Of a DNA stretch of 64,000 nucleotides, positions 15,846-49,430 are shown in pieces. The stretch lies in contig CBFHFQ010000202.1 in the NCBI GenBank assembly GCA_965655095.1, forward strand, positions 1 through 64,000. Direction: 5' to 3'. The stretch is from Haplodiscus bocki. Taxonomy: Eukaryota. Each line of letters starts with the position of its first letter. The stretch's first letter is position 1. The translations under genes were made by a program, and so were the position numbers. The notes below the pieces were generated by a model. It did not search any database and had not been told where the DNA came from. It worked only from the letters and a program-made list of their open reading frames with translations.

Positions 15846-16184
15846 CGGCTACAAAAAATAAATATTAAGCCCCGGTGTTGCAGAGAAAAGTATAATAATT
15901 GAAAAACCTTCCAGAAAAATTTTTCAAGACTATTTGACATTTGACAATTTCAGGCAACAAAAAGAACAAAAAAGTCTACCTTTCGATTAGAAAAGCATCC
16001 CACAAGAACAAAAAAACCCAGAGATAAACAAAACTACAGTTAAACAAGGACCTTGTGACACGGAAGAATTGAAACTTAACACTTCATTAGGGAAACATTC
16101 AGATTAGAAATCTAGGGTTTTTGGCACCACGCAAACTAGGAAGTGAAATCTGTACTTGTTAAACTTTCCTTTAGCTTCGCTTGG

Positions 16185-16560
16185 TATCACCTACTTAAAC
16201 ATTCTTTTAGTTGAGGACAGATGAATTTGACATTACAACATCGAATTTCCATGACATTTTAACTTTTAACATCTCAAACATTCAATGATGAAATTCTTGA
16301 CATATTAAGTTTTAACTTTCCAAAAGTTTAAATGATGAACTTCAAACAAATTGAAGAATTTGTTCATCACGTTTATTTAATGTTAAAAAAACTGAAACTT
16401 TAATAGCAAGCTCAGAAGAGTTACGAAATAAAACTTGCATGGTTTGTTTTTTTCACAAACCAGGAAACCACGTTTGTGCCCAAGCCCTGAAGACAAACTT
16501 ATCTGCTCGCCAAAAGAGATCTTCTCAAAATGAAAAAGTCAAAATTTTAAATAACGATTT
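16185..16560 (+). repeat. 5' LTR of Gypsy A (boundaries approximate)
   Basis: Colinear with 30128-30500 (tagttgaggacagatgaa, gatgatgaacttc, aaaaaactgaaactt, ctcagaaga, gaaaccac). Followed by a PBS-like ttggtga at ~16564. Confidence 0.75.
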
Positions 16561-17702
16561 GACTTGGTGATAGTTCGGAAGCAATCCTGACATGCAGTAC
16601 AGAGAAAAACTATCCTCATTCGGCTAAAAATCTTGCCTGTGCTCCCTATCAATCACCCACTGCGATGCCTTCACGTCATCAATCAAACCCAGCCACATCA
16701 TCCATGTCCAGGTCCAGTTCCATGCCGAACTCGAGTTCCAGATACACGGAGCTGCAAAACTCAAACAAAGAACTAACGGCAGTGTCAATGAACCTTTACA
16801 GGTATTGCAAAATCTTCTGACGTGAGTGCTGTGCGTTTTGGTGAAAATTTTCAAAAAAAAACACAAGAAATCAACTCAAAATTCGGACTGCAATCACTTT
16901 TTTGGAGCCAATTTTTGAATTGATTATGGAAAAACAACATTGAATTGCAGAAAACCGCAAATCAGCATCGTTGTTCAGCATTCTGTTCAATGACGTTCAA
17001 TTGATGTTCGGTTTTGGACAAGAGGACGACACGACAATGGAATATCAAATCTCCTTCAGATGCTTGACGTGATGCTTCAATTAAATGGCAAAAAACCAGT
17101 GGTGTTGGTATTCCAAGAGCCAGGTTTGATATGGTCATAAATTTTATGGGGAATCAAACGCTTCATTTCGCTCAGTTGCTTTCATTCGGCCCAAAACGCT
17201 TTTTTCTTTCAATACTTCGCTTTCAAGATTGTTTTTTTTTTGAATCATTTAAACTTTCAATCGTCTTTCAAGCAGTTTTCTTTTTCGGGAAAAGTTCGGA
17301 ATTTTCATTTTCCTTTCAAGAAAAACCGAATTGCAACCAACTCTGAAATTTCGAAGTAATTTTAACAGTTCGATTGGGTAGCACTGTAACTGTTATTTTC
17401 ATTTTTTTTCATCTGTTGGTCTTTCCACGCTTTTCACACAGAAAACTCATTGAAAAACCCTATCTCAAAAGTCTTTGCAGGAGTTTGTGAGGAATTTTTT
17501 TCGAAAAGTGACAATTCTGTTTCACCAAGTAAGCTTTTGTTTTCCAACGATTTTCTTCTTTCCAAGCAGTTTTCAGTTTTCGCCTTTATTCTCGTTTTTT
17601 CCAACCCAAATTAACCTATTTTTTCTAACTTTTCATTTAACTTAAAATAATATAACTTAACCTAAGTTAACTAAACTTTATTGTAATTTTAAATCATTAG
17701 AA

Positions 17703-19000
17703 ATGGTTCAACTTCAACTTACGCTCACTCCTTGTTCTGGCTTGAAGAAAGAGAAATTCAGTGAAATTGAACTCCTACTTCCAAGTATTTTGGCGGTACC
17801 AGCCAATCAGCATGCAAATTTTCTACAATGGCATCTTTAAGATGCTGCCTCACGCTTTTTTTAAACTTTAACTTAAGTTGCACAAGATGACTTAGACATT
17901 TCTGTCATGGCTCTTCTTGTTGGCCACAGTTACAAAAACTCCATATTCCTAGACCTAAAAATCTCAAAACTGACTCGAAAACTGAAATTTCGGAAACTCT
18001 TTTCAGGAACTTTCCAAAAAAATCATGAAAGCCTATCCGGATCCATTTCCTCCGGCAGTTGAACCACTTGATGCACATGCAGTGGATGCGACTGCTGAGC
18101 AAACTCGGCTGGATCAAAACACAGCGCGTCGCTCAGAAATTTTACGCTCTTCCCAAGAAGCACGATCAGTAAAAATTAGGCGTCAACTTTTCAGAAATAT
18201 GCCTGCTTGGCTGCGGGCAAAGTTGCTCGAGTAACTTGAAAGTACTACCGCGGAAGACTTAAGCATTTTTGCGCGAAAATAATTGTCAATTCATCATCTT
18301 CCCCAAACTGACGATTCTGTCATGGACGCATTAAGCAAAATGGGGCCTTTGGTTACAAATACACTTGTTAACGGTCTGCCAAAATTGAGCACGAGCCAAG
18401 AAGCAATGCACAATAGAGTAAATGAAAATCAAAAAAAGTCGAAAAACGAAACACTGCCTTAACGTATCAATTTATCTAATTTCACAAAAATCAAACCCAA
18501 CAGCCCCAGAGGGGAGCCGTTTTGCAAAACCGCGGCTAAAACTCAAAACGTTCAAGAGGTAAAAACCAAAGGAAATTTAGCAATGGAGAGTTTACAAGAA
18601 CTCGAAAGTATTATCAACAACGTTAGTGGCAGAATCAGCACCAAATGCATACACACTACCACAACAGTCTTATCAAATTTTTCCACAGCCAATTTCAAAT
18701 TCTTTTTTTTTTCACCGGCAATCTTCGAGTTTTCAATCCCGGAATGAAAATTTTTACTATCTAAATTTTGAGAAACAAAACTCACGGCCTCAAATTTCCA
18801 TATTTTAACCGAGACAATCGTTTGAAGTCTCTACTGCAGATCCTAATTACATGCCTTAGACACAACAAACTCAGATTACCTGTCATAAATGTGGTCTGTC
18901 TGATCAGTAAGCGACAAAGTGTACAGTGAGAAGAAACCCTCCACGTCGTGGCGCAAAAAATATATTTCCTCAAATTTTGAAAAACTAAGTACTCAGCACG
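17703..19000 (+). pseudogene. gag: gag-like ORF of Gypsy A (decayed)
   Basis: ATG at 17703, MVQLQLTLTPCSG...ANFLQWHL*DAASRFF, RRQLFRNMPAWLRAKLLE, and a zinc-knuckle remnant CHKCG near 18880. Confidence 0.75.
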
Positions 19001-19099
19001 AAGATCAACAGCCCAAACAAGTAAGGAACGTGGCTGAAAAAGCCAGACTCATGTAATGAATTTCCCTACGTAGATCCGCCTGAAAAGTGAGCTGTTCTT

Positions 19100-22000
19100 T
19101 CTTTAGAGAGAGAAAACTTTTCTTGTGTTCGCCTAAAATTTTCCAATCAAAGTAAATGAGAAGCTTTCATTGATGCAGGCTCCTGTCCTATTGCTTCATT
19201 TGAATCTTTTTAGTTGTGCTTAACTTGACTAGTTCTAACTTCTTGATTGTATAGAAACCTTCCTATATTTCTGCCGGAGTGACGTCTGGTCAAAAAGTTC
19301 CTTTTATCAAACAAGCAGAAGTTTCATTTCAGGTCGGATTTCACTATATTCGAGATAGTTTTCTTGTTTTACCGACTATGGATAGTGTTCTTCTTGGAAA
19401 TCTTTTTTTTTCAATAAACAAAAAAATTACAACTGATCCATGCAATAAATTGTTACAATTAACAAACTCGCTTTTACAGTTGAATCAATTTTTGCCCTAA
19501 AAGAGTAAAGAACCTTTTACAAAACAAAAATTGAATCTTTGTTTCACTTTAACGAAAAAAGAACAGATTACGCCCCAGTCGCAAGAACGTTCAGAATGTA
19601 GCTTGTCTAAACTTTCTGAGCAGTATCATTTTTGTACCGGACTGATTCTTGCAAGCAAACCTCAAGAACATACTTTTAGTTTTGCTTTTACTTCGTCTCT
19701 TAGCAAAAGTGATGATGAGTGTATTCTTCATTTTGGCTATAGATCGTTCTGATAATCAAATTACGTTAAATATTCAAACTGAAACAGCGCATTTCCGAAT
19801 TTTAAATGGAACAAATGCTGATATTTTGATTGAAATTGACCCTCAGCCAATTTTTTTATCAAAAATTCGTAACCCGGCTGATTTTGGAGACGAAATGTAT
19901 CAGTTGATTTAAGTTCTTCTTTCTCCAAAAAATGCTACACCAACAAGTCGCACACCTCTGATTACTCGAAACTCTGGTTTCTAACTCCAGAGACCCATAA
20001 TGAACTTTCTTGTTCAACATTCTCCAAAGAGAAATTTTTGATCAAATTTTGCAAATTCAGAAGCAAGAAAATGGATTTTCAAATTACTTACGCCGAGAAA
20101 ATGGATTTTTGGCAAAGACTTTCATGGGACACTTGTTTCCTAAATACTGACAAAAAAATCAACTTGAAGAATTTTTGGTTGAATACCAAGATGTGTTTGC
20201 CAAACAAGGCTTTGATGTAGGTTGGGATACGGAACTCAAAATTAAACTAACTCCTGGACACTCACTTCCAGTGTATGCTCAATGTCCACCAGCTCCAAGT
20301 CATCTGCAAGATGAAAAATTGGTTGAACTTGCATTGTTAAAAAATTTTACCATTGTAAAAACGCTGTCACGTTCCAAATTCAGTGGTGCGATGCTTGCAC
20401 ATCGTTAAGCAGCTGATAAACTGAGAATTCTATCTGTATACATCGTGTAAACGATCTCCTACGCCATGAACAATTAAGTAAAAACTTTACAGATTCAACT
20501 ATGAAAGATGCCACAAATAACTTTGCTTGGAAAAAAAAGTTTTGCAAACTTGTTTGTTCACGAACATATCACTGTGTTCAAATGGTAGATGACCTTTCGG
20601 TCCAAACTCTGGCTTTTAACTTTGCATTTCGAACTTTTGTCCACAAATTCTCAGCTCACGTTTTGATTAAATCTGTCAATGGTTTTACTTCCTTTGTCAA
20701 GCACTACCTTGACACTTACCTAGCACCAAATTTTTGTACGCATTTCGAGGACGATACTGCTGCTTGAGTAAATATTTTCAAGGAAATGATTCTAGCATTA
20801 CGAAGAAATTTTCATTGATTGAGAAAATTGGGTTTGAAACATTCAGCGCCAAATGCAAAGTCTTAACAACACAAATTGACTACTCAGGTAGCACAATTAC
20901 TGGAAAAGGAACAACACCCACATATGCAAAAGCTGAAAAACTCTTTGGACATTTTAGAATGCTTAACAAAGTGAATGAAGTGAAACGCCTAAATGGATAT
21001 GTGCTATTTTTTCGGAATTTTATTCCTAATCTTGGACAAAAATTATTGCAATTTCAAAATTTTTCCCGCAAAGAAAACGCTTCCAGAATAAAAATTGAAC
21101 ACCATTAGTCTTTCAACACTATAAGACTTAGTACGCGCTACTGATTGAACGTAACGCTAAACTAAACCAGGCTTCCAGTATGTCATTCTCTTTGACGCAG
21201 TTTTCATGGCACTGGTTTTGTAATAATGACTTAAAATTACTTGATTGAAGAAAAAGAAAACAAAAAAAAGCTGCACTCCAGTGCGTTTTGGTTCAAGACA
21301 TTTTACAACAACACTATTGAAGTTTCCTGTCTATCATAAGGAACCTCCAGCTCTGTAATTTGACTTAGACCTTTTTGCACACTTCAGTTGGGGCCCAACG
21401 AAACCTTTTCTAGTTTTAATGATAATCGAAACTTAACACAGCTTTTTTCATTCAGAAAGCAACCATCCATCTGTACAATCTTTACGGAATTGCTTAGACA
21501 GAGTTTTGCTTTTAATATTCTACTTGCGCATATTCCTGTAAAAGAAACCTCTGCTGCTGATTTTCTTCCACGCATGCACACAGAACCTAATTTGACCTTA
21601 GAGATAGAATTTAAGGATCATGTTGCTAATCGTGAAACTAAAACAGACACTGAAGAAAAAGCAGCAGATCTTACTTTGTCAAAAATAAGTGACATACGCC
21701 CTTTATTGAAGCAGTCCAACCTTGCAGTGACGAACAATTCATCAGTCAACTGAAGGCACGTGGTCTCTATGATCAATTTTTGCAAGAAATCCTAGTGATG
21801 ACCCAGACATCGCAATTGCGGGCTTTTTCTCCTCTTCATCGGTTTGTGATGTGAATTTGATTAAAACCAACAATTTTGAAGACATTTTGAACAAATTACC
21901 GAATCGTACACAAGCTCTTGACATGGTTCAAGATCAACAAAGTGATGAAGTTATCCGAGAGGTAATTCGATGGAAAAATTGGGGTAACACTGCTAAGTCG

Positions 22001-23990
22001 CCAATTTTACCGACACCATTACGTAAGTACAGAAAAATTTTTACCGCCTAGTTGTCGAAAATTTTTTTTTATTTTATATTTTTTATTTTATGTTGACTGT
22101 GGTAAGGTAGAATAAAACAAATTTGTGCATCAAAAACGCATTGGCATGAGTCTGTTTTGCACCTTCATTTTTCAAAATCTGCCGGACACTTTGGCATTGT
22201 GAAAACGGTTGAGGAATTTGGCAAGAGGTTCCATTTTCAAATCTTTACCGATTGTTTCTTTTCTACAATCAAAAACTGTCCTTTTTGCTTACAACTTAAA
22301 CGCGTACCGTCAAATTTTTTGGAACGACCACCGTTGTCACTGACTTCTTATCCGGATGAAATACTCCCAGTTGATCTGGGTGGGGCCCTAAAAACAACAG
22401 TTCACCAATATATGTTAACAACTATTGGTGTTTTTACGAAATACTTATTCGCTGTCCCTTTGGAAACGTCAGAGGAGAGACTATCCCGCGTAACCGGACG
22501 TCAATCATTTTTCCACATGGTAATTCACCAACAACAATTCTGTTTGACCTGGGAACTTCCCTTGTTTCTGAACTATTGCATGAATTAACAAAAGTGTTTG
22601 AAATTCAACTAAAAAGTGCAGGTCTAAAACACCCTTAAACAGTTGTCTTTGTGCAGCGCTCCCATAGTGCGCTTAAACGTATTCTAGAATTGAATTCTAA
22701 TGAACAATAGAGCGATTGCTTTAAATACATACAATTAGCAACCTAACATCACAACCAGTCTTATCATTCAGCCCTTGACTGTAGTCCTACAATATTTTTT
22801 CAGGGACGTGAACCAATCTAACCATTAGAGCTACAAATCAATGAAACTTTGATACAACGATGATCTCCGAGTTGCGAATATGTTTTTGCATTACAAGACG
22901 CCGTCATCAGGATTTTCTCGTAAACCAAACTTAAAATCATTCAAATGTACAAAAACGATCGCGCCTAATATGATTGTAAAGCGGCAGTCAAACCGTTAGC
23001 TCTGTTCTTCTACTGTCTCTTACTTAATCCAAAGCTCTCGACACAACCTGATTTCGAAAATAAAACGTTGCCGATTTGGCTGGCTCTCTATCATATCAAG
23101 AGATTCTTGACGAAATCCAGTTACATTTTTTCCAAAGTTAGCACGAAATACACACATATTGTCCACAGAATTCGTTTTCGTCCCGTGACCCCGCAAGGTC
23201 GCATTGATGATGTAACGGTCAATCGTTTGACAAATCTTTGAAGAGGCCCATCGTTGTTTATCGGATGTACACCTTCTTTGTTGTAACCTTCCACCACAGA
23301 GGTTACAACTCGTACAGCGACGGAAGACCCGCCAGCTGTACCTGCCAGTTTTCGATTTCTAGTCGCTCCAGTGCACGTACCAGTGAGACAGGCCGCTGCA
23401 CCGTCTCTGTTGCCCCCAAGGCTGAAGCACAATTACCAGAGTGACCTCAACTTACTACTCAGGTTGTATGTCTCACTAACGATGACGGTGTACAAACTGA
23501 GGAACTGCGAAAATTTATTCCAAGTGACAATAGTGACAGTTCCGCTGACACCGCACGTAAAAGTTCAGTTGACTTACCAAATTTTCTCACCACTTTTCTT
23601 TCTGGAAGTCCACAGACCCCATCTTTTAGTTCTAAGTTAACTGAATCGTATGATTTCAGACCAAGATCACCACCTGAGGACTATCATGAGAAAGCCATTC
23701 AAATCAAAAAACCGCCTAATGTGCGCTGTATTCCGGTAAGTGAGCCAGATGTCTCGTCGAATCATTTGGCTCAGAGTCAAAAACGAGAGTTAGTCATTGA
23801 TTTGTGTCCACAAACGCCAACCTTTCGAAGTAGTTCTGATATCCATACAAACCGACATGTACACAATGCTCGCATCACTATTGTACATTCGGAGCAGTCA
23901 ACGCCACCAAGATATTCAGTACGGCAAAGGAGGTGCAAAAACGCTAATTTCTGAAAAATTCACAGAAAAGTCTATCGAAACAAAATGACA
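19100..23990 (+). pseudogene. pol: pol of Gypsy A: protease, RT, RNase H, integrase and a low-complexity tail (decayed)
   Basis: Protease AFIDAGS at ~19165. RT YHCVQM...LAFNF and FEDD at 20744-20755. RNase H at ~21180-21570. Integrase H...GHFG...CPFC and PVDLGG at 22160-22390. The PR-RT-RH-IN order is the Gypsy order. Confidence 0.92.
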
Positions 23991-24001
23991 TCAATGCAGT
24001 C

Positions 24002-24445
24002 ATTGACTCCAGTAAACATCCAAATTTTTGCTTTGCACAACCAATTAGTCTGACAACTGCTACATGCATAGCGCATTGCGTTTCTTGTGATTTTGCTATG
24101 GGCAAAAAATAGCTGCTACGCTCAATTGTTGTTATACCGAACTGCAGGAATTGCGATAAAAATCTTCATATTTTTATCCACCTGGCTCTCTAGTAGCTAA
24201 TCTTGATCAACCAAACATTCGATATCTTTTTAATTTAGTGACGAAAAAACCACTTTCTCAATTGAACAACCTACGGAACACTCGAATTGAGCCTGCAAGC
24301 GTTAAAAACAACACTTGAAACTCCATAAAGCTTTTGCCGTTCCTTAATTTCCTTGTAACTATGGTTAGTTACGGTTCTCGAAGTTTTTTCAATTTTACTC
24401 AAAAATTTACCAGATTCAAACATCACACTAATGATATTTTATCCT
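24002..24445 (+). pseudogene. Macrodomain of the TARG1/OARD1/Poa1p-DarG type, inside Gypsy A after integrase (decayed)
   Basis: Manual translation across frameshifts gives CIAHCVSCDFAMGK/IAATL...PGSLVA...RYLFNLVTKK.../TYGTLELSLQALK.../FAVP*FPCNYG*L.../DSNITLMIF. This is colinear with TARG1 SLAHCISEDCRMGAGIA...RYIYYLITKK...PTYENLQKSLEAMK...LSMPRIGCGLDRL...DIKITVY. Confidence 0.85.
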
Positions 24446-24599
24446 ACATGATAACATAGCATGCCATTATTGAGTAAAAAACTTTCTATTCTCCGAAACT
24501 TGTGTTTTTCTCAAAGTTCGGGCTTATTTGGTCCAAACATATCGAAAGTTCTTATTTGACCTATGAATGCCTTTTTTTGACGTCACAAAGTCAAATTTC

Positions 24600-26200
24600 C
24601 AGAAGCGGGCAGCAACAAAAGCTGCTTTCTCCCGCCTAGCATCCTATTCCACAATCTCATTCTCGTCTATAACCTCTTCAATATAAGCGTGTTTTTGAAA
24701 AAAAATCATTTCTCCCATTTCTAGTGTTTGACATTTCCATTAAATTTTTCAAGGTCAAAAAGTCAATAATCAAAATTCTGCCAGCAACAAAAGTTTTCCC
24801 ATCCTCCTCGCTTCCTAATAACCGTGTTCATTTTCCTTGGCTAGACTCCCATTTGGAACGCAATTTTGCCAAGAAGAAAATGATAGTTTTTTTTCCACCC
24901 TGCACTACTCGGTATTAATTGAATATCCATCGGAAAACTTATCCATATTTTTGCTATCTTCAAGAATGAGATATATTTAATAGTACAGTTAGAAGGAACG
25001 TTGTTCATTTCCCGATTTCATTCACTTCGCAGCAACTGGAAAACGAAAATCGATGAAAAAAGTCGGAAACAAGAACAAAAAACATACTTTTTCACTTTCA
25101 TCCACTTCTCTCGCATTGCTCGCACATTCAAGTTTTCGTTTTCGTTTCGAAACTCAAGATGGAAGACCTTGTTTTCTTTTTTCCTTAAGTCCCACCCACG
25201 CATCTTTTAGATAAACTCGGCTCAATAAATCGCCCACATCGGTCGGCTCCATCTGTCTTCCTTCAAAGTTTGTAACAGTTCTCCTCGTTTTTTTTCAGGA
25301 ACAGTTTTTAGACCTCTTAATGTACCCGTCCCCACCCCAAAACCAGAATCATTTGACACTTCTCGAATTTTTTCTCTCTCTTCACTATTTGATTTGGCCC
25401 TGCCTGTCAGCACAGTCGTTCCTTTGTTTGAGGTCAACACAGACTGCGCGCAAAGGGCATGCTGCACCAGAAAGCTATTAGGATCGGCGAAATAATAAAA
25501 TGTATTTCCGTCAAATTTTACAGGAGGCATAGGACATAGCAAGCTCTTAAACTCTTTCGCAAATCAGATCTGCTAAATTAAACATTTCGAAGCAGCCCCA
25601 CGTTCCGCGATAAGGAAAAAAATTTCCCCCATATGCAACATGGTTTACCGATTCATAACCGGCAATTTCAATATGTCCTCTGTGAACCATCCACCCCAGG
25701 TTATAAAGGCATTCCGCTCTCAACCCACCACATAAGTTGAAGTTTTCATGGTGAATAAATTTGCCATCCCATTGACTAACCCTTAGAAGTTCCTAAAGTT
25801 GCATCAACACACGTCAACAAATTATTGGCCACGGTTTCCCGCTCTCTCTTAACCCAGTCTCGAACCGCTCAAATTCACTTGCAGGGTAACTGCTTTCTGA
25901 TATCGTGCTTAATTTTATTTCTTTTTTGGTTGAATATTAGGTTAGGCGAACCTTTTTTACAATTAAAACTTTTCCCAGTATCGAAATGAGTGGACTCAAT
26001 ATCCTATCAGGACGATAAAATTGCTCCAATCTATTTGCTGAACTGTTTTCCAGTCCACTTGTTCATATTCCACAGCATTGCAAAACTTTTCTCTAAAGAG
26101 ACAATGTTCCGGCAAAGCTGTCTGCGCTTTCTTCGTAGGAGCTCCATCGGTCATCATTTTAAAATCGACTTAAATCTGAAATTCACATGATATACCAAGA
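24600..26200 (-). pseudogene. Decayed antisense accessory ORF of unknown function inside Gypsy A
   Basis: Successive protein-like minus-strand segments: SYPASEFERFETGLRESGKPWPII...VSQWDGKFIHHENFQLMWWVESG, ORF 25222-25542 and ORF 25018-25203. Confidence 0.5.
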
Positions 26201-27407
26201 CCGCCATCTGTTCCATTTAACTTCGAACGCTTGTTTTCGCTTGTTATTTTATGTTGCTTAATGTCAACATCTACTTTAACGTTGAATGTTTTGTATACTG
26301 GTGTGCGCTGTGAAACATTCCTCTTCAATCGTTTCGAATTTTCTTTGGACTCATGTATTTGTTTCTTACCTTTACTGGTGTCATAAGTTACATTATTATA
26401 ACCTCACCCTTCCTAGCTACTTTAGTCTGCTTCTGACTAACTCCTAGCTTTTTCAATCCTTCCTAGCTTTAATAGGAATACTTTTCACCCAATTTCCTAG
26501 TTTTTTTTCTCGCCTGTTTTACCCAGTTCTTTTGATCAGATTTGTTTCTTTTGCACCACTTAATTAAAACTAAAAAAACAAACCGCAAAAGCAAACTCCA
26601 ACAAGCTACTTTAACCTAAAAAAAACACAGAGGAACTACGCTACAAGTAACGTGGAGTGAACAAAACAAATTTTATTTCGTTTCCACTAGTTTCAATTTT
26701 TCTGCTAGCTTGTCCCCTTTTACCACAGGCGTCGTACAACTTGGTAAACTACATAAGCCACCATATAGTAAACAAGTTAAGCCAGGCGGAAGTTTGTCTC
26801 AAAATTGATAAAGACTACCATTGCGTTTGAAGTCGTTTTCATGTAGATACTTTGTTGCTTGATGCCACAAAATAAAGGCCTTTCTTTAATCAACACTTAT
26901 TCCCAATTTGCACCTTAGATGGTGGGCCCAATGTTGCAACAGAGTATTCTCTGACCAAGCCAAATTTTCTTTGACATCATAAATTGCAGATCACCGCTAG
27001 GGTGGGAAGTACCATGAGATTAGTCCACTTTTTCATTTTACAAGCTCGTAGACTCGAAGTTTTTCATTGATCTCCTGCAAAAAACTGTGACCGCTCCAAC
27101 CGAAAACAATTCCTTCCAATGCCATATTCAATGGGCCAACGTTTGCTCGTTTCTTTTGAACGTGCAGGTCGCAATTATCTTAACCAAAAATGAACTTTCC
27201 CGCGATGTGACCATCCGGCTAAAATCTCACGGTTTGTTTGTTCAAATATAAACATCCGCCAACTATGACAACAGCGCAAGAACAAAAATCTGACATTTCG
27301 AAAAATTTGACTGTTCAGAAAAACTCACGCTGACATTTATCATGATACTCTTTTTTTCGATCCGCCTGTTTAATTGCTGATTCAACCAAAGTTAAAATCT
27401 CAGAAAC

Positions 27408-29716
27408 ATGCTTCTGCTTTTCTTCTCCTTAAAATTCATTTCTGCTCCTGTTCGAAGTGGTATCAGCTTCTAACATTGCAGCCACCGCAAATTCCGACTA
27501 AGTTACGAAAAAAAGAGTTTGTTTAACCAGGTTCGTAAAATCTTACCGAGTGGAAAATTTTTTCGCGTCGAAGTTCTTGTTCCGTTTCCGACTTACGCCT
27601 TCACTATGAACCCCGATAATGAACACATTATTCGCCAACTTTCCTTAATGTGGGAAACTCCTTCCTTTTTGAGTCCGTTAAATTTTTCAAGCCAATTTGC
27701 GACAAACACTACTGGCTTCAATGTCAATTGGATGTTACATCAAATTAGTCATGAGATTTTGTTAGCGCAACACAACCCCGCGCTATCCGGAACGAAACAG
27801 CTATATTTTCAACAACAGATAAGCCTCCAAAGTCTACTCGACAACGTCGCGACGCCAGTATGGGATTTGCGTTTGTTGCCGTTCTTGGATTTTTCGGTGG
27901 AGACCCTGCTGTAGGTGGTTCCAATTTTCTTGGTTTACGTAGTGTTTTTGGGATTTCTCAAAATCAATCCGAGCAAACGCAGAAAGTGTACGCCACCTTG
28001 CTGTTTTCCAAAACCGTCTCAGTGAATACGTTACGAAGTTCATGGCCAACACGGATGAAAAAATCTTTCTTGCTGAAATTGAATTGGCAGCTCTCAATAC
28101 AATTCAATCTGAAACTGGCGCGACCCAAGAGAAGAGCTGGGCCATGAACCAAGATAAGTTGGCATTTTATGAACAAAACTTTTGATTTCTACATGGTTGT
28201 GATCAACTTTTGTTTGCAAATCAGCCGCCTTATTTTAGTTTTGATACTGCCTTTTCTCTAATTTCAATGTTTCGTGCTAGCGTGAGAACCTATCGTTTAG
28301 CTTTGTTCACATGACCATTTTTGTTAAAACGAAAATTTCCAAGGCCGCTCGTTCCTAAGAAGTTGCTTCTAATGATAATGGATAGTGTCAGTCTCCGACA
28401 GTCAGAAGCCGAAGATGGCTTAACCTCTGATATACAAGTGAGCGGTTTGTTGTCTTTTTATGATTCTTGCTTGCTCGTTGACGCTACTATGGTATCAGAA
28501 CGACTTTTGTTGACTCTTAACATACCACTTGCTTCACCGCAAACTGTTAATACGCTTTTCGAAGCGAAACTTATTCCGATGTTTTTTCCGGGCAACCCTC
28601 AGACTGCTCTTAAATGGAACATCAAAGCTCCATATTAAGCACTCTCTGAGAATAAACATGAGTCGTGGTCTTATTTCTGGAACAATAGGAGGACTGTCGC
28701 GGTTTGTCGAAGTACCGAATTTACTATGGAACATTCCCAGCATAAATGGGACACCCTTCTTTCATTGCAATTTTGATCTTCTTTTAGTCCTTTTATTGCA
28801 TTAGTTGTTTGTGAAACTACTGCTATCACCTTACCCAGCCTTGAACAAGCTTTGAACCTCGGTTTTGGTATAAGGCCTGTTAAATCTGCCAGAGCTGATA
28901 TCACTTTCCGGCAATCAGAGTCTTTAGCAACATCAACCTCAACAAGATCATTTGCTGGTTGTCGTATTTGCATCACCAACATCGCGTGTGGCATGCAAGT
29001 TCGCACGGGGCAATTCTTCTTAAGATTGGCTCTTGCATCATGTTCAACTATTCCGGCAATTAAAGATTGTTTTTGCTGGATTCGCTGGATTCTATGATCA
29101 TGCAAGCACCCGTTAGACGACATACCATTGTAAACCTCGGAAACAGAAGCAGGAGTAACTATTTTAGAAGCAGTACAAAAGAAGCTGGTAAGCAGCCCCC
29201 AAGTCCACGAAGTCAATCAAACGGTGGAAATAGCAAAACCGTTTGCACAGGACATGAGACTTTTGAAACCCGCACTCACCCTCAAAACTAATCAGTATTT
29301 ACCTTTCAAAGTGCCTTTTACGATGACCTTCATTGTTTTCATCATCGCAACAGTGCTGAATCTTGTTTTCCACTACATGTATCACCGGTTTAATCAAAAA
29401 GATTACATCTTTCTGAAAACATTCACGAAAAAGAACACTACAAAACCGGAGCTGCAAATTCCAAAAGAATTCTCAGGAGAATTTTGAACCAAGCTTTCAA
29501 GTTTTTATCTCTTGCTTGCTCCTGCTGCGATTGAAATATCATAGAAACCTCCGAATCTCCTTGATAGAAACAATAACTCCAACAGTAACCTCGGAGCAGC
29601 CACTTCCATTCACATGCTGCCTTATTACGCACCTATGGAAGCGAACGCGAAAATCTGTGACTGCTATCGCGCCTCAACTGGAAAATTTCTATGCGTCATT
29701 CCCCAAAAATTTTTGA
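27408..29716 (+). pseudogene. env: env-like class I fusion glycoprotein (F-type) of Gypsy A (decayed)
   Basis: Signal-peptide-like start MLLLFFSLKFISA at 27408. Furin site RQRR at 27839-27850. Hydrophobic Gly-rich fusion peptide DASMGFAFVAVLGFFGG. Heptad-repeat region, Cys-rich ectodomain (GCRICITNIACG...ASCS), TM segment FTMTFIVFIIATVLNLVFHYMY at ~29317-29385, then a cytoplasmic tail. Confidence 0.85.
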
Positions 29717-30127
29717 AAATCAAACTTCCACTGCTTGATTGACTCGAAATCTCATTTCAATCAATAAATGTGATTATCAAAACCAAAACATGCCTTTTTC
29801 AAAAAGTTTCTGCAATAATATGTGGAATAAAAATCTAAAAAATTCTGTTTGAATACACCACACGACAGGACGTAACGCAAGCTTGTGACTGGCACAAAAA
29901 TTACGTCAAAAGATGATCACATGACAAAAGTTTGGGCCATTGGCAATCTTGGAACGGCTATCACTTGAAAATACCTTTCTACTTAACGGATATTTTTTTT
30001 GGGTTCATTTTTTGTTTTTACTAACTCAACTTGTGTCTTTCAGTCGTTTCAGTTCATGAATTTCACTGGATTCCTCCACTGGATGATGTGCTCTTTTGAC
30101 AGGCCAGAAGTGTTTGAACGGAGTATT

Positions 30128-30500
30128 TGTCTTATAGTGAAACATTACTATAGTTGAGGACAGATGAACGTGAACTTACAACATCGATTTTCTTTGAGGT
30201 TTCAACTACTAACTTCTGAAACATTCCTTGATGAAGTTCTTGACACTTAGTCCAAAAACGTTTTGAACCTCAGATGATGAACTTCGAATAACTTGGATAA
30301 TTTGTTCATCATGTGTGTACAATGTCGAAAAAACTGAAACTTTTAGTAGCAAACTCAGAAGATTTACAAATTGAAACCTGCAACGTTCGTTTTTAACTAA
30401 CCAAGAAACCACCGTTGTCCGCAAGCACCGAACCGAAACTTCTCCGAACGCCATAAGAAATCTGCTCAAATTCAATCAATCAAGACCTGGAACAACGACA
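30128..30500 (+). repeat. 3' LTR of Gypsy A (373 bp)
   Basis: Starts TGTCTT and ends ACGACA (imperfect inverted termini). Preceded by a purine-rich PPT remnant gaacggagta. Homologous to 16185-16560. Confidence 0.8.
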
Positions 30501-33500
30501 TGAAACCTTTGGTAATTACGTATTCACGCCTGGCAGGGCAACCATGTTCAATCCCAACCTCAACGGTCCTAGATTTTACCCATACTTTCGAGAAAACTTT
30601 TCTCGGAAGACTCGGTAAACCTTTGCCTTTGTTGAAGAAAATTTTGAAAGGCCGTGGCATTTTGATTCGTCAGTCATTGAGAAGTTTGATTGTTCCGGTA
30701 GGCACACTGCGCCAGCGGCGTTCAGGTGGAAAACAAAGGACTTTACTACCTCCTCTTGTTGTAGCAACGGCGTTAAGACAGTTTTTTGGCAAATCCGGAT
30801 TAGTGGCGTCTACATAAAATCGACTGCCAAAGGAGCGGTAAATCCGGTGAAAGGATTCAATTCGGATTGGCATGATTCACAAAACGCGCTCGATACCAGC
30901 TGCCGACACTCTACGACACTTCTCCTACGTAATGAAAGCTGTCAAACGGAGCTGTTTTTATTCCTCGGGAAAGAAGCTGCTATCATGGAACCTAATTGAT
31001 GTGATAAACCTATTGAATAGTTCTGTATGATTTTTGAAATATGTCCACCAGAGCACAAGGAAACTCTCCAACAATGAGAGCTAGAAAAAGGGGTCAATTC
31101 ATATCTTTCAATGCACTGCGACTGGTCAGGACGGCAAAGATTGTGTTGCGTGGACATCTATATCGTTGCCGTTGCCCGTACCGAGAGATTTCATGGATCG
31201 CTTTTTATATGTGGTTTTTGAACTGCATCAGGGTTTGAAGACTATAAAATATCGCTATCGTCAAACAACGCCAACATTACAAGTATATATTTAGTGCAAA
31301 TTCATCTAAACAGTATGGTCGACGTGACAAAATATGCTTTTTTGGGGTTGACGGGACTAATGATGAGGCTGTATCTGAAGGTGTGGTAGAGATTGCCAAC
31401 AACATCGGAGTGACTATATCCAAACATGATGTAAGTGTGTGTCATCGCTTGCCTCTAGGAACGCTGAATCACACCCGAAAATTGCAAGTGTTGTCCGAAG
31501 TGAAATCAAAGTTTGCGTTATGACTCGCAAAAGATTTCTAAAAAACTCATCAACAAAATTCTTATCAATGACGATGTAACACTATTGCGGGCAAAAAAAG
31601 CAAAATCTTTTCGCCAGCACCTTGTAGTGAAATAGGTCAAAATGTTTAACGAAAAAGTAGTTTTAAAAAATCTAATGATAAAAAGCATATTTTCAAGAAT
31701 TTATTTGATTGAACTAAATAGGACATGGAATTTTTTGATTCTGTAGGTAAGGAGTTCTGGTATTTTTGGTAAGGGACCTCTCAATAAAACGACCCCACCC
31801 ATATATTGAACTAAAGTTCAACAAAGTATTAGGAAAGACATTTAGACCAGTCGAGAAAGCAATGAATGCATTTTCAAGTCAAAATTCGCTCGCCTGGTAA
31901 AGATTATGAGAACTCAGAAGCTTTTGGCAATAAATAAGCCATCTGTTGAATGTTCATCAGAAGCATGGTTATCGAAGGTGGATGAAATTCAAAAGTCCAC
32001 TTAAACAAATACTTGCTTCCGGTGTTTCATACTGGCTTCAATAGAAATGGCCATGCAGTCATTGATGTTCACGAGTTCACCAAATTTGAGGTGTTATGCA
32101 CCGAAGCAAGCTTACTGCAATATCGGAACGAGTAAAAACAACCAAAGTTTTGTTGTGGTTTGCTTGTACATCTCTCAATCCTTCAATTATTCTTCAATTG
32201 TGGAAGAGTTTGAATTGTTACTGAACGACATTTCTAACTTAATGGGTTCCACAGGTTTTATTGTAGGCGATATGAATTTTGATCTGCTGAAAAAAGGCTA
32301 TCTGTCTAGTATTTATTCAAGTTTTGTGCAGTTTAACGCAATGACTCAACTGATAGAGACTGCAAACGACTCACCATAGATTCGGCAACTCTGATTGATC
32401 AAATATTTCATAATCATTTCATTATTAATCCTAACTGTGGTATACTTGATGGTGGTTTATCTGACCACTGTGTTAATCTCCAGAAATTGCCGTTTTCTGG
32501 TAAAAAAAATTTTTGCTTCCATTTATGATGAAAATGCAAGACAAGTTTTTTTAGTTTTACTTTCAAATCAATTGAAAATGTCAATCCCAATGATGACCTC
32601 TGCCTAGAAATTCGAAATGTTTTTGGAATCAATACAACACAGTATTGAACTATGCAGCTCTGGAAAACAATCCAAAAACTGCAAACAAACTTGGTTTAAT
32701 TAGAATGTTCAAAATGCTATCAGTAAGAAAATACAGGCAATGAAGCATTTCAGAGAAAAACCAACTGCTTCGAATAAAACAGTACTCCTAACAGTTAGTC
32801 GAAAAACATGTTTGTTTGTTAAAGAAGTCAAATGTAATCAATTTTGAAACATATTTGCAAATTTTGCAAAAAAACATAAAAAAAAACATTATAAAAAGCC
32901 CAATAAAGTGACAATTAAACGAAGAGTGAAAATAATCTGACTCTAAATAGAGAAGAAAAGAAGTAGAAACAGAGGAAATCAATTTCTCCAACAGTTATTT
33001 GTTAAAAAAATGTTACTTTTGCAAAACTTGTTAAATGTTCAACCACAGAGGAGCTGAAAGAATGTATTAAACGTTTTGATAATATTGACGACGTTATGTT
33101 TGCCTTCCCAATTAGTGTGATTGGTTCATGTTTGGTAGGTAACTTGAAAAAAATAAAGCCGTTGGACTTCTTGGTGTCTCATCTGAAATGCCTGAAATTT
33201 CGCAATCGGTGAGTATTTTTGTTTTAATTGAATTTCCTATTCTATCTTTGTCATGCAGTTGGTTCCCGAACTCTCTATAGGTTGCCAAAGTATAACCCTG
33301 ACATACACCGGGTGACCAAAAGGGATATCAAAAACTATACCTCACTTTGGATTCTAACAGCTAGTAGTAAAGTGTTCGAGAAAACTTTGTATGTACGATT
33401 ATACTTATTTTTCGATAAAAAAAAAGAGTTTTTTTTCCGGGAGCAGTTTGGTTTTTTATAGCAAACGAAGTACTATCGACGCTGCTGCTGAAGTTACAGA

Positions 33501-34268: not shown

Positions 34269-37074
34269 CTAGATTGTTGTCCACAAGTCTCTGCACTGGT
34301 GACAGTCACAGGCTGCCTGCCAAGTACAGACATTTTGGAATGAGAACTTTTCTTCAAATATCGCTTTCATTGTTCTCAGAATCCTACTTTTGAGTCCAGC
34401 CTTTTCGTCAAAGATGATATACAAGTTAAGTCTGTTCGCTAATCGGCTATTTCTGAAGAAGAATTCCGATCTCGCTTTCTCCGTTCGGGCTCCACCTGTT
34501 TCGAAGAGTGTGCGTGTTCGCCTGTTTGGTGGAACTCTAGGGGGTATCATCTCATGTTGTTCATCACACAGGGAGGAGAACAGGAGTAAGTCATTAACTT
34601 GCAAAAACATGGGCAGTGGGAGGAGATTGAGAGTACTGAGTTGACGTTTGTAATCGTCAGACTGATTGCCCATTATCCATTTGATGGCTTTCCGCTGGAA
34701 ACGTTCAAGCCTGTTTAGGTCCGTCCTGTTAGGGCTGTAGCAGTGAAATCCGTAGGTCAGTATCGGGAGAATTAACGATTTATACAGACCAAGTTTGACC
34801 TGGCGGCTGATCTGATAAGCGACATTTCGCCTGACGTAATAAAGGGCGTTTCTGGCTTTCGCCAGTCTGACATCGACATGTCTAGTTGAGCTCAGTTTTT
34901 GGTCTATCATTACACCCAGATCCTTGACTTCGCTTGAAGATTCAAGCACTGATCCCATCAATTTGAAGTTCTTGTTTATGCCTCGAAAAGTGAGTTTGGC
35001 ACATTTGTCCATTGCTAGGCTCATTTTGTTCTCGTTTACCCAACTTTCGATTGCTCTCAAGTCTCTTTGGAGAGAAATAGAGTCAGGCTTTATTGCAAGT
35101 ATTTTGAGATCGTCGGCGAAGATATAGGGCTCACTGAATTTGAGGCGGTCAGGGAGGTCATTGATGAAAATGCAAAAGAGTAAAGGCCCGAGAAGGGACC
35201 CTTGAGGGACGCCACTGTTGACAGGTAAGGTTATGGACCTTTGGTTGTCAACTCTCACATACTGTTTTCGATCTTTCAGGTAGTCAACAAGTACCTCAAG
35301 GAAACATCCTCCAACTCCGGTGTTCGCTACTTTTTGCAGTAGTTCAAAGTGAGGGACTTTGTCGAATGCCTTCGAGAAGTCAGTATAGAAGGCTACTACA
35401 TCATCCTGACTGTTGTTGTCAAGGGCCTTATGTATTTTTGTTCAGGAAGAGTAACATGTTCGTCATGACGGATCTTCCTCTCGTGAATCCATGTTGACTA
35501 TGGGTCAGAAACTGCTCAAAGTGGTTGTAGAGGGGTTCATACATGCACTTCTCAAGCACCTTGCTATCTATATTCAGTAAGGAGATAGGTCGCCAGTTTT
35601 CGACTGACCTTCGGTCTCCTTTCTTGAATATGGGTGAGACGGCAGCAGTTTTCCATGTCGCGGGAAGCTTGCCGAGACGTTTGATATTGCGCAGGAGTTT
35701 GTGTAGGGCTGGAGTTATTTCAAGAGCGGTTTTGTTGAAGAAGATGGGTGGTAGGCCATTTGGTCCTCTTGTTTTTGTGACATCTAAGGACGAAAGAATT
35801 TTCCTGATTTTACTTTTGGAGACATTGAAATTTGTCAGAATGCTTTGTTCGGCCTTGATATCGGCGTGTGTGAACACTTGTTTGGAGGAGAAGACTGATT
35901 GGAAAAAGTTGTTCAGCAAGTTGATTTTGTCAACGGGCGCTGTCACGGTACTTTCCCATCGGTCATTTCGTTGGGGAGGGAAATCGATTTTTTGAGACTC
36001 TTCAAATGCTTGAATATTCCATCTGTGTTTCGCGAACCCATCAGTTCCTCTTGATAGTTTTTTCTATCTGTTTCACATGCGGAGAACACTATATTTTCCA
36101 GATTAGTTACTGCTGTTTTTCGATACGAGGTCGGTTTGCGGCTGAGCAAACGTTTTTGTGTACCAAGTTGCTTGATCAAATGCGAGGTACTGCGAGTAAT
36201 CCAGGGTGGTAGTTGCTGCCTGTGGAAGGTGCGTCTTGGAACGTGTCTTTCGATTATGGAATCAAAGTACTTGTATAGTTCTTCCGTCATTTTGTCAATA
36301 TTGGTGTGACAGATAGAGTCAAAAGGCGCGGAGCGCATTGCTTCGTTCATAGCATCATAGTCACCGCTTCCGAAGCTTCGACATCTTTCCAGGGTCGGTT
36401 TCTTTTCATAGAGTGCACATTCCAACTGTAGCAGGATGGCGTGGTGGTCTGAACAGTCGTATACATTCTCGAAGGAATCATCTCGCTTGGCGTGTATATG
36501 ACAATTTGAATAGAAGGCGACGTCCAGAATGTTTTGGCCACACGTTTTGAAATCAATGGCTTGTAGAAGGCAATGATCCTCGAATTCGTCGAGAACTTGT
36601 TGTTCGTAGTCAGAGAGACTGGTTAAGGAACTCCAGTTCGTTTCTGGGAAGTTTATATCTCCACAGATAACTAATTGGGAGGTTTTGGGAAGAAATTAAG
36701 TAGATTTATGAAGTCGGCTAGTTCATATCGGTATTTACTCGAAGCTGGGGGGTTGTAGAATACACATATAATTATGGTTACATCACAGATTGTGATCTTG
36801 CACGCAATACTGCTGTCGGGCATGTTCGGGTTGTGGACTTCCTCGGCGGCAAGTTGTTTTTGACAGCAATCAATGACCCTCCATGGGGGTTTTGATCATG
36901 AAGTGCTTTACGGTCTGCTCTGAAGATGTCATAGCCGTCAACTAAGAGCTCACTGGAGGCAATGTTGACGTTAAGCCAAGTTTCACAGAGACATATAATG
37001 TTATAGTTATTGGAGGTGATTGCATTTGCTAATTTGGCTCTTCGATCAAAGTTCACTAGGCTTCTGACGTTCAT
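34269..37074 (-). CDS. LINE D ORF2: APE endonuclease plus reverse transcriptase (several single-base frameshifts as assembled)
   Basis: MNVRSL, CLCETWL, YNPP, ICGDINFP and SDH (APE). WRPISLL, HSQHGF, YTDFSKAFDKV, SGVPQGSLLGP, FADD and KDLGV (RT). Terminal CTWQAACDCHQC. Confidence 0.95.
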
Positions 37075-37097
37075 TTGAAGGATGTTGACGAAGTTTT

Positions 37098-38008
37098 CTA
37101 GTCAATCAAGGTAGGAGGTCCACCTGAATCTGTCGAGGAGACTTCTACTTTCTCACCATCTAGAAAAAGCTCGAGATTTCTGACACTCAGTTTTTCTCTT
37201 TCTACTCCATTGTTGATCAACTCCCTTCTCTTCTTGAGAATTTGGTTCTCTCGGATAGCATCCTCACGTGAAAGGGCAGGGAGAAGATAGAGATTGGCTT
37301 TGGACAGTTCATCTCTTTTTCTACGGGCTGTGGCCAGAAGTAAGCTCACTTCATGTTCATTTGAGAGGGTGACAAGCAGTGGTCTAGGTTTAGTTCTCGC
37401 ATTGTCGAATTTTCCCATGCGTTTCATTTCAACAATTTGTGGCTTGGGCTGAAGGCCCAAGAGTGTCCATCATCTTGTTAACTTCATCACATGTCGGGAC
37501 AAGATTTTCAGCTTTGGATTTAGCAGGATCCTCTCGAATTCCTTGAATTCGAAAGCTTTGATGAATGTTGTGACGTGGACTGGGTTTCGTTTGACTTTCG
37601 TCGATTTTTGCTTTTTCGGTTTTTAAGTTTGTCGAGAGAACAGAACTGTAGGTTTTTTTCCACTTTCTCGCACGTGTTTTTCAGTGCTTCATCGATTTTT
37701 CTGTCAACAATTTCAGTAAGTCGCTGGTCCATGTTCAACAGTTTGTCATTTAGATCAAGGCTTTCAATCTTTTCAACCAGGTTGCTCTGGGTGAAACTTC
37801 GTACAAACTTATCGCGCACGTTGTTGTCATGACAGGACTGGCACAACAACATTGCGAGCCCACCAAGATCTTTTATGCCGTTGACTGCCACTGGGGTTAG
37901 TCCAGTGCAACTTGAACTGAGGTGGAAGCATGCATTGCAAGCTACACAGGTGTAGATTGGTTCATTTGCAGTGACATTCCGCTTACATGTTTTGCACGTT
38001 TTAGTCAT
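37098..38008 (-). CDS. LINE D ORF1: PHD finger, coiled coil and RRM/CTD (frameshifted as assembled)
   Basis: CKTC...CVAC...H...C...CQSC PHD finger, coiled coil, then FRIQGIRE...RMGK...PRPLLVTL after frameshift correction. Confidence 0.9.
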
Positions 38009-38076
38009 TTTGTCGAAGAGGCTGGACTATTGGACTCCGAATTAGAAATTCAAGGAATACACAATGAGTTCTAACC

Positions 38077-38679
38077 TTATTGACTATCAGCTGCGTTCTG
38101 TTTTGCTTTCCGTCGACTTTTGGATGGCCTGGGTGTTCTCGTTCTGGTTCGATACAACTTTTTGAGATCAGGGAAGTAGTGGAGTATGACGGATAGGGTT
38201 CTCAACTCTTGATCAGCAGATTGGTGAAGTTTTTGGTACTGTCTCCGAACGCTGAGATTTTCACTTTCAGTTCTGGAAAGAATGTGAGTCGGAACGTCAA
38301 TAATGAAAACGTTTCTTTCTTTTAGGGCCAAAAGTTCAGCGAAGATGTCGGGGGCACCGTCTCGTTTGCAATGAACTACTGCGAACAGATGTGGGATTTT
38401 CTTGAGAATTGACACGAGTTCTTGTGCTGGTAGGGTCTTGTTATCGTTCGAATGGTGAGCTGTCAGAGAATTGTTTATTAGGTCGTGCCACAGTATGACC
38501 TTCTTGTTAGTGACAGCGGGGGAGTTGATGAGCGTCAAAGCTTTCAGCTCGGGGTTCGTCACTCTCGGGTTTAGGCTGTACCTTGACTTGGCGAAGACAG
38601 AGCTACCGAGTGATTCCTTGATCTCAGGATCTGATTGAAGGGCCCTTTCTAGTGAGCTGGCACCGATAACTTGGAACAT
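38077..38679 (-). CDS. LINE D ORF0: intact 200-aa putative SGNH/GDSL-hydrolase-like protein with a basic tail
   Basis: Uninterrupted ATG-to-stop ORF inside the TSD-bounded element. N-terminal VIGASS resembles block I (GDS), VILWHDLINNS resembles block III and QKLHQ resembles block V (DxxH). Arg/Lys-rich C-terminus. Confidence 0.7.
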   Translation of the reverse strand: MFQVIGASSLERALQSDPEIKESLGSSVFAKSRYSLNPRVTNPELKALTLINSPAVTNKKVILWHDLINNSLTAHHSNDNKTLPAQELVSILKKIPHLFAVVHCKRDGAPDIFAELLALKERNVFIIDVPTHILSRTESENLSVRRQYQKLHQSADQELRTLSVILHYFPDLKKLYRTRTRTPRPSKSRRKAKQNAADSQ

Positions 38680-38714
38680 TCGGGGGAAATTGGGATTTGA
38701 GGGGATTTGGGGCT

Positions 38715-38796
38715 TGGACTCGGACTCTGAGAGTCAAGGAGTACACAAGGTTACCCAAGGATCTGGACTCGGATTCTGAGAATCAAGGAGTGCACA
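38715..38796 (-). repeat. Two tandem copies (49-nt period) of a 33-nt motif in the LINE D 5' UTR; a third copy lies at 38031-38063
   Basis: tggactcggactctgagagtcaaggagtacaca / tggactcggattctgagaatcaaggagtgcaca / tggactccgaattagaaattcaaggaatacaca align without gaps. Confidence 0.9.
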
Positions 38797-48800: not shown

Positions 48801-49430
48801 ATTCCATATTAACGCACCAGAACCAATCCAAACGCTCCAGTTTTCTTTCAGGTAGTTTGGCGTTGGCAGGTTTTGATTGTAAACAGTTTTTACCATGTTT
48901 GGGTGTTAGTTTCGCCTCGAACTCCGTGTTCATCCCAATTTCCATTTATTTTTCAAAAACATATCATGATAATCAACCATAAGACTTTCAATTGCTTGTT
49001 TTCCAGCTTTCTTAATTAGTGTGTTGGTCCATTCAAACCCTTCAAGTAGTTTTGTTTGGGATTTTTGATGACCCTGTGGGTTTAGTTTCCATTACTTCTT
49101 CAATTCACGCAATTCTGAGCATTTGTGGCTGTTATGGGGTATAATCGTCAGTTTTGCCAGGGTTTTTGGGCTTCAGGAACCAGATTATGTTGCTCTGCTG
49201 TTCAGTTTTGTTCGTTCTAAGTAGCTCACTCAATTAGGTAGTCAGATCAGGATCACCTTCCGGAATCATTTTGAGGATTGCCATGTACACTGATTTGATG
49301 AAGTTAAATTGCTGCAGAGTGACTACGGAGAAGTCGGCCTTCTGCGTATTCTTTTTGAACATTTAAAGCGATTCCGTTGTGTTAGTAACTCTGAATGCTA
49401 CCTTCGAGTGGGAAATCAGCTAATTGACTG
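45803..49430 (-). pseudogene. pol: pol of Gypsy B (RT, RNase H, integrase; decayed)
   Basis: YASPIFSQRKPNGKLRLLMDLRK, YLDD, QVEFHG, FQRYLGYVN, integrase GKHP...CKQ, HATTKHAQT, and a terminal LRHNPK motif. Confidence 0.93.

Follow-up and report, generated by a model that had tools for sequence, protein, structure and literature searches.

An env-bearing Gypsy family of Haplodiscus bocki with a macrodomain at the end of Pol and an exchanged antisense block of predicted JmjC or OTU-like genes

A 64,000-nucleotide stretch of the Haplodiscus bocki genome (assembly GCA_965655095.1, contig CBFHFQ010000202.1, positions 1 to 64,000; called the window below) contains a decayed Gypsy element at positions 16185 to 30507. 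A model that saw only the letters and their open reading frames (ORFs), here called the sequence-only reading, had proposed that one pair of long terminal repeats (LTRs) encloses five coding modules in the order gag, pol, macrodomain, antisense ORF and env. Were these modules inherited together as one element, and what could the additional genes do for it? Our best explanation is that the element in the window is a dead member of an env-bearing Gypsy family in which Pol ends in a TARG1-type macrodomain and a swappable antisense block, of JmjC or OTU type, lies between pol and env; the enzymes would erase host silencing or defence marks. The architecture and the JmjC fold are firm, whereas function, including infectivity and counter-defence, is a matter of interpretation, and for the explanation as a whole, function included, we consider the case evenly balanced.

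The element and its copies

Copies were sought in the whole 1.5-Gb genome. With the LTR, 46 matches were obtained from the 40 candidates scored (of 126), and eight loci were fetched: five are full length and match the window's gag, pol and env in colinear order, while two of the stretches fetched cover a 5' end only and one a single LTR. With the middle region as query younger relatives were reached, and three of these ten have LTRs that are 99-100% identical and open frames for gag (449 aa), pol (1957-1979 aa) and env (about 806 aa). There is also a second lineage with the same layout, whose Pol is 56% identical and whose LTRs are different (99.8-100% identical within a pair). The family is abundant and the lineage is not extinct, and in this respect the sequence-only reading, which placed its activity in the past, has to be corrected.

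The features that characterise Ty3/Gypsy elements (Metaviridae) are all present: LTRs, a primer-binding site (PBS), a polypurine tract, target duplications and Gypsy-type reverse transcriptase (RT), RNase H and integrase, in the order protease-RT-RNase H-integrase (Pfam). The LTR termini of the family are TG..CT or TG..GA, compared with the usual TG..CA.

It could be argued that the modules are independent nested insertions peculiar to the window copy, and copies C2a and C6a do hold nested insertions. The probability of this is next to nil. It is refuted by an identical order in dozens of independent insertions, each with its own target duplications: the order is the same in all five full-length old copies and in two lineages, and env is present in each of 40 stretches picked by their macrodomain (chosen from the 150 macrodomain matches listed, among 6027 candidates, with long frames favoured). 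As the sequence-only reading had supposed, the modules occur together as one element. Two copies covered by L007-L009 and L012-L015 have been interrupted, one by an 8.8-kb insertion with helicase-like ORFs inside the 5' LTR, the other by a nested Gypsy element within env.

The ends of the window copy were set by repeat comparison, by blastn and by comparison with the termini of young family copies. Its 5' LTR (16185-16564, +) and 3' LTR (30128-30507, +) are each 380 nt long; the element therefore ends near 30507 and not, as first proposed, at 30500. The direct repeats are spaced 13.94 kb apart and are about 76% identical (75% over 349 nt with blastn; 298 of 386 aligned bases in a pairwise alignment). 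They are flanked by CTTGG (16180-16184, +) and TTTGG (30508-30512), a 5-bp target duplication with one mismatch; young copies also have 5-bp target duplications. A PBS-like motif common to the family begins directly after the 5' LTR (16565-16579, +; matched by none of 100 shuffles), and comparison with young copies reveals a decayed polypurine tract before the 3' LTR (30101-30127, +).

This copy is old and, as the sequence-only reading stated, dead. All its genes are broken by stops and frameshifts, and the longest frame within the element is 181 aa. A Pfam search of its six frames identifies only the integrase zinc finger and RNase H, so that intact relatives were required for domain identification. 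Remnants were located by tblastn with proteins of single natural copies. This gives the order gag (17685-18985, +; with a CCHC knuckle by Pfam in intact copies), protease (19091-19479, +), dUTPase-like domain (19549-19831, +), RT and RNase H (20250-21567, +), integrase (22109-23256, +), linker (23248-24022, +), macrodomain (24026-24445, +), antisense ORF, second small antisense ORF and env. The order first proposed is thus correct. The count of five modules is not: in intact copies pol and macrodomain share one frame, and there are two antisense genes rather than one.

In an intact copy Pol is a single frame comprising protease, a weak dUTPase-like domain, RT, RNase H and integrase (Pfam), followed by a low-complexity linker (about 375 aa in an intact copy) and a terminal macrodomain. 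The two lineages, 56% identical, have Pol ORFs of 1957 and 1923 aa, both ending in the macrodomain, which is the C-terminal domain of Pol and no separate module. The nearest solved structure to the RT is Ty3 RT (E 5e-24), followed by foamy virus (2e-19). The dUTPase-like domain is below the Pfam cut-off (E 0.013), matches a PDB dUTPase at E 0.027 and has motifs that look degenerate. The macrodomain exceeds the Pfam Macro cut-off and, in the intact copy, is closest to human TARG1 (E 4e-29), other macrodomains giving 4e-5 or worse; this is in line with the earlier suggestion of an ADP-ribose-processing module. It retains a lysine aligned with K84 of TARG1, which is catalytic there (PMC8501950). 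This family lysine would be the K84 equivalent, with an offset in numbering. A candidate USP cysteine box at 24090-24120 was rejected, as it is the macrodomain in a different reading frame.

The env remnant (27507-29523, +) derives from an F-type class I fusion protein homologous to F glycoproteins, as expected of the fusion glycoprotein proposed earlier. We call it F-type because relatives match Baculo_F (three of 37, one of them over the cut-off) and because the env alignment contains a basic site, a hydrophobic stretch resembling a fusion peptide and a transmembrane (TM) segment. The env of the element itself has no Pfam or PDB match, including in a profile search of PDB sequences with the env alignment.

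The block between pol and env

The region from the pol stop to env (24446-27100 in the window copy, up to the env leader) is a block of 3-3.7 kb that is exchanged as a unit. Among the 40 macrodomain-picked copies, ten carry a JmjC gene and 24 (one partial) an OTU-like gene, both antisense; six carry neither and none carries both. The window copy is of the JmjC type. The sequence-only reading correctly noted an antisense accessory gene, but gave it no identity and did not foresee a block that alternates with another.

The swapping is directly visible in sister copies. Their identity is 94-96% as far as the pol stop and returns to 92-95% from just upstream of env; between these flanks their blocks show no similarity, or short patches at 72-93%. 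The counts and comparisons show that the blocks exclude one another and are exchanged, the breaks falling at the pol stop and a little upstream of env: one inherited element has a fixed slot with exchanged content. On an integrase tree of 61 copies (five, with no usable stretch, were left out) the JmjC label requires 10 changes and the OTU label 14, with at least five and at least six, respectively, forced by well-supported branches. The labels are nonetheless more clustered than shuffled labels. In one second-lineage copy the JmjC gene is of the subtype that the window's lineage has. Comparisons between cassette subtypes show saturation at synonymous sites, while the backbones differ by a synonymous divergence (dS) of about 0.2, and the cargo is therefore far older than its backbones. 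No terminal repeats or terminal inverted repeats bounding the block were found in the four regions inspected.

The block also carries smaller genes. A second antisense gene, present in 33 of the 40 copies, encodes a small protein with a signal peptide, a Cys-rich part and a TM helix; in the window copy it follows the JmjC gene (26723-26971, -; tblastn E 7e-13). A small sense ORF is present in 26 of 40 copies, and a possible, weak remnant of it lies at 26638-26757 (+; best E 0.008). In the second lineage (L044/L045, L054/L055, L042/L043, L052/L053) as many as three small sense ORFs (90-130 aa) lie between pol and the JmjC gene and look paralogous, with similar Trp/Asp-rich ends. A 79-nt non-coding element (24717-24795 in the window) occurs only in copies with the window's JmjC subtype (75-87% identity in five other copies), and as three repeats in copy C5e; in L063 (3585-4048), which has one JmjC subtype, three diverged repeats of about 185 nt directly follow the pol stop.

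Other variants concern the size of the block. It is wholly or mostly deleted in L065, L068, L071, L078, L081, L082 and L084 (pol-env gap 186-1322 nt), some of which have a long open pol. Locus L040/L041 has identical 651-nt terminal repeats, a JmjC block and env, and the part of it that was fetched contains no match to gag or pol; it is possibly a non-autonomous carrier of the cassette.

The antisense genes and their predicted role

The antisense remnant at 26169-25066 (-; tblastn E 2e-43) matches an intronless, single-domain ORF of 350-425 aa in other copies, and its fold was taken from a relative. An AlphaFold model built from eight copies (predicted local distance difference test, pLDDT, 71) was compared with known structures. 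All 40 Foldseek rows listed are JmjC proteins (best E 7e-7), the top 13 VIA rows are all JmjC, and the Atlas places the protein at 0.96 to JmjC clusters. We therefore predict firmly that the gene encodes a JmjC-fold Fe(II)/2-oxoglutarate dioxygenase. The Fe(II)/2-oxoglutarate site is predicted to be intact: the H-x-E motif, a Lys 15 residues further on and the distal His are invariant in the 16 element proteins aligned, and H, E, K and H are retained in 89 of 103, 97 of 106, 102 of 109 and 86 of 96 remote rows, respectively. Four residues after the distal His there is a Thr (HxxxT) in 16 of 16 members and in 82 of 94 remote rows. Thr in place of Asn at this point is the pattern listed for JHDM1/KDM2/PHF2, there written HxxT versus HxxxN (PMC2938197), and the site would be of the KDM2/KDM7 histone-demethylase type.

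A search of the genome for the JmjC gene (150 of 726 candidates scored; 30 loci fetched by rank and open frame) placed it antisense beside pol and/or env in all 30 loci (10 of 10, then 20 of 20), in two lineages; in the second set the macrodomain is present in 18 of 20 and env in 20 of 20. Outside this genome, a word-index search gave 23 proteins and a full profile search 331 clusters (50% identity) at E 0.001 or better. Ten relatives that were looked up include no named protein, and viral contigs gave no relative. Seven metagenome contigs carry relatives, and two of them repeat the layout of the family, one with env and one with the small sense ORF on the opposite strand. Among the more distant relatives, P0210, P0224, P0237, P0254, P0261, P0277 and P0283 are single-domain proteins with basic tails that form a separate clade, and L105 (1-1214), another of the seven contigs and from a different metagenome (about 30% identity, GC 0.51), is split over two frames on a contig that provides no context.

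Recent capture from the host was considered for four host JmjC ORFs, which we take to be KDM5-, KDM6-, KDM4- and JMJD4-like. None gives any score against the element profile, and recent capture from these four is therefore rejected.

The alternative antisense gene is in four pieces with conserved borders, separated by gaps of about 60-100 nt that vary in frame. Borders were counted over the 24 copies, in those rows in which the anchor motifs could be located. GT occupies its usual position in 15 of 17 rows for gap 1, 12 of 13 for gap 2 and 15 of 15 for gap 3; the corresponding counts for AG are 16 of 17, 9 of 9 and 14 of 15. Judged by sequence, the three gaps are GT-AG introns. None of the 15 joints listed (of 29; contigs of four runs of unknown kind from one study) falls at a predicted intron, and this is not evidence either way. 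There is a conserved Cys in exon 2 and a conserved His in exon 4, and by eye an integrase-type zinc finger can be made out in exon 1 and the first part of exon 2. The product, modelled with introns left in (pLDDT 40), gave OTU-family or related viral deubiquitinases in 30 of the 33 Foldseek rows listed, the nearest folds being viral OTUs. The four-exon product is probably an OTU protease, though the call is weak because the fold was tested only with the introns left in. A ribosomal L31 match of the OTU alignment in the PDB profile search (E 0.004) was rejected, since it covers translated intron.

Selection was estimated for each module, as the sequence-only reading had suggested, from median pairwise ratios of nonsynonymous to synonymous divergence (dN/dS) over pairs with dS 0.15-1.2. 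Within pol the medians are 0.06 for RT, 0.10 for the dUTPase-like domain, 0.14 for integrase, 0.24 for the macrodomain and 0.40 for the linker; elsewhere they are 0.24 for gag, 0.11 for env (redone on its N-terminal half), 0.21 for the small sense ORF, 0.49 for the TM protein (three pairs) and 0.26, 0.14, 0.49 and 0.19 for OTU-like exons 1 to 4. Close JmjC pairs with synonymous changes give 0.11-0.40 in six of seven. Over 120 JmjC pairs of 16 copies the proportion of synonymous differences is 0.68 and that of nonsynonymous differences 0.41, and third positions of the antisense frame vary most. Purifying selection is thus present in every module (dN/dS <1).

These values bear on the view that the antisense genes are passengers, captured from the host or from DNA transposons and kept by hitch-hiking or for host benefit, but useless to the element. 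OTU domains and introns occur in Ginger1 and Helitron DNA transposons, possible donors (PMC2836005), and copies without a block exist. The motifs are invariant despite synonymous saturation between subtypes, however, the JmjC gene has the same slot in 30 of 30 loci, the four host JmjC ORFs score nothing, no terminal inverted repeats bound the block in the four regions inspected and long-term purifying selection on multicopy mobile sequences largely refutes the idea, which we regard as very improbable.

How could the block work? Blocks may be exchanged through template switching between co-packaged genomes, within the conserved flanks. In antisense orientation the cargo could retain introns and a poly(A) signal of its own, since on the genomic RNA neither would be read. 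KDM7/PHF8 enzymes remove repressive H3K9/H3K27 methylation. With its basic tail, the JmjC protein would act in the nucleus and strip proviral chromatin of repressive histone methylation; ubiquitin would be removed by the OTU protein, and ADP-ribose on element protein or DNA by the macrodomain. All three enzyme types would remove a modification (ADP-ribose; a methyl or other oxidisable group; ubiquitin), most simply as a counter to host control. Copies without a block could receive help in trans. For the JmjC protein itself, a role in chromatin de-repression is predicted with the scales about level.

A number of observations count against this interpretation. Pfam JmjC models match none of eight element JmjC proteins and only two of 33 scanned remote relatives, weakly; a profile search of PDB sequences with the JmjC alignment likewise gave nothing meaningful. 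For the OTU-like model the best Foldseek E is 0.027 and the VIA Z 2.5, and the gene is without any Pfam or PDB sequence match. The block is absent in six of 40 copies, three of them with open pol frames of more than 1500 aa, so that an element can do without it in cis. For one close JmjC pair dN/dS is 0.86, and the dN/dS pairs are not independent and come from stop-free stretches only. Finally, the element JmjC proteins are single-domain ORFs with no PHD or CXXC reader domain, and their best VIA scores are tied between hydroxylases (JMJD5, TYW5, JMJD6, FIH) and demethylases (KDM7A, PHF2, KDM2A).

The last two points also favour a different role for the same architecture, namely that the JmjC protein hydroxylates a non-histone protein or an RNA, as do JMJD5, JMJD6, FIH and TYW5, and acts not on chromatin but on translation, splicing, the primer tRNA or stress signalling. 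JMJD5 (Z 13.2, root-mean-square deviation 3.4, 189 aligned residues) and TYW5 head the VIA rows, within 1 Z of KDM7A, JMJD6, FIH and PHF2 (range 12.3-13.2), and the Atlas neighbours include JMJD4-like clusters. Against this, PHF2 and KDM2A rank first in Foldseek, where the best rows are PHF2, KDM2A, TYW5, KDM7A and PHF8, and the Thr after the distal His follows the KDM2/PHF pattern (PMC2938197), the host JMJD4-like gene having Asn there. We judge hydroxylation rather unlikely, although it deserves serious attention.

A further alternative is that the cassettes have nothing to do with transcriptional silencing and, much as complex viruses use their accessory genes, serve the particle or cell-to-cell spread and manipulate immune signalling or survival of the particle-producing somatic cells. 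The signal-peptide/TM protein belongs to the same block, the OTU-like model comes closest to viral OTU folds, and small TM proteins (sORF2) mediate retrotransposon spread in insects (PMC11952523). The TM protein has no convincing relative, however (only Atlas leads under 0.9), and the interchangeability of JmjC and OTU suggests a common target pathway, without naming it. Spread is a distinctly less probable function than hydroxylation.

Returning to counter-silencing, a more ambitious form of it, which we advance tentatively and with somewhat less than even confidence, is that of a retrovirus-like animal element with its own histone demethylase, rotated by recombination of antisense cassettes with an intron-containing deubiquitinase and accompanied by a Pol-fused ADP-ribose eraser. 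This would be a modular counter-silencing arsenal under balancing turnover, and behind it would stand an unrecognised mobile JmjC family, that of the 331 clusters.

The window contains two other decayed elements. At 46072-48900 (-) there is a second, unrelated Gypsy pol, whose RT is about 36% identical to that of the family, and at 34269-38733 (-) a fragmented non-LTR element, presumably of the L2/CR1 kind, with endonuclease and RT frames and two upstream ORFs, one Cys-rich.

Significance and comparison with known systems

Animal hosts silence retroelements mainly through chromatin marks, and to our knowledge element-encoded enzymes that erase such marks are hardly known. Here there are three candidate erasers within one element family. 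The many copies in one genome, with near-identical backbones and a JmjC, an OTU-like or no cassette, constitute a natural experiment, and antisense placement would let a retroelement keep a predicted spliced gene through reverse transcription. Since Pfam misses the JmjC family exposed here, similar cargo may have been overlooked elsewhere.

In the literature searched we found no retroelement with a JmjC gene, with a TARG1 macrodomain or with an antisense block of enzymes that is exchanged; this search did not extend to Repbase, Dfam or most subscription journals, where the macrodomain in particular may have been recorded. The backbone is familiar. F-type env Ty3/Gypsy elements ('ancient errantiviruses') are widespread in invertebrates, including outside insects (Chary and Hayashi, PMC13524379), and share with the present family gag-pol-env between LTRs, the protease-RT-RNase H-integrase order, an F-type env and multiple intact copies in an invertebrate genome. 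They are described with chromodomains after the integrase, where the present family has the TARG1 macrodomain; the 3-3.7 kb antisense block between pol and env is a second difference. The words macro, antisense and dUTPase are absent from the main text of that source, and JmjC, OTU, dUTPase and antisense from its seven supplements.

Individual properties of the block have counterparts in other elements. Conserved antisense ORFs between pol and the 3' LTR occur in the plant elements Grande, RIRE2 and Retand, where they have their own promoter (PMC7264820); in the passages covered, these contain no recognised enzyme, have no env beyond them and are not reported to exchange unrelated enzymes. OTU proteases with GT-AG introns and an integrase-type zinc finger are found in Ginger1 and Helitrons (PMC2836005, PMC6431247). 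Those are DNA transposons with OTU fused to the transposase, whereas the weakly predicted OTU here is a separate antisense gene within a retroelement. The giant planarian Gypsy element Burro has env and accessory domains directed against host ubiquitin or apoptosis systems (PMC6431247), but fused in one polyprotein, and the part covered does not mention JmjC or a macrodomain. Bdelloid LTR retrotransposons have a variable accessory ORF3, a dUTPase and a paramyxovirus-like env (PMC5408684). Their GDSL esterase and DEDDy exonuclease are ORF3 types alternative to env, while here the cargo stands beside env, is antisense and is predicted to be partly spliced. If it is a modular cassette arsenal, the family would have a parallel in large viruses, whose effector loci are variable.

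The closest precedent comes from orchids, in Gypsy elements with an AlkB m6A demethylase (PMC9289625). There, too, an additional ORF encodes a 2-oxoglutarate/Fe(II) dioxygenase, and the role proposed for it is to counteract surveillance by the host. The orchid enzyme is an AlkB-type RNA demethylase of plants, close to host enzymes; that of the present family is of the JmjC type, far from host genes, antisense and exchangeable, in an element that has env.

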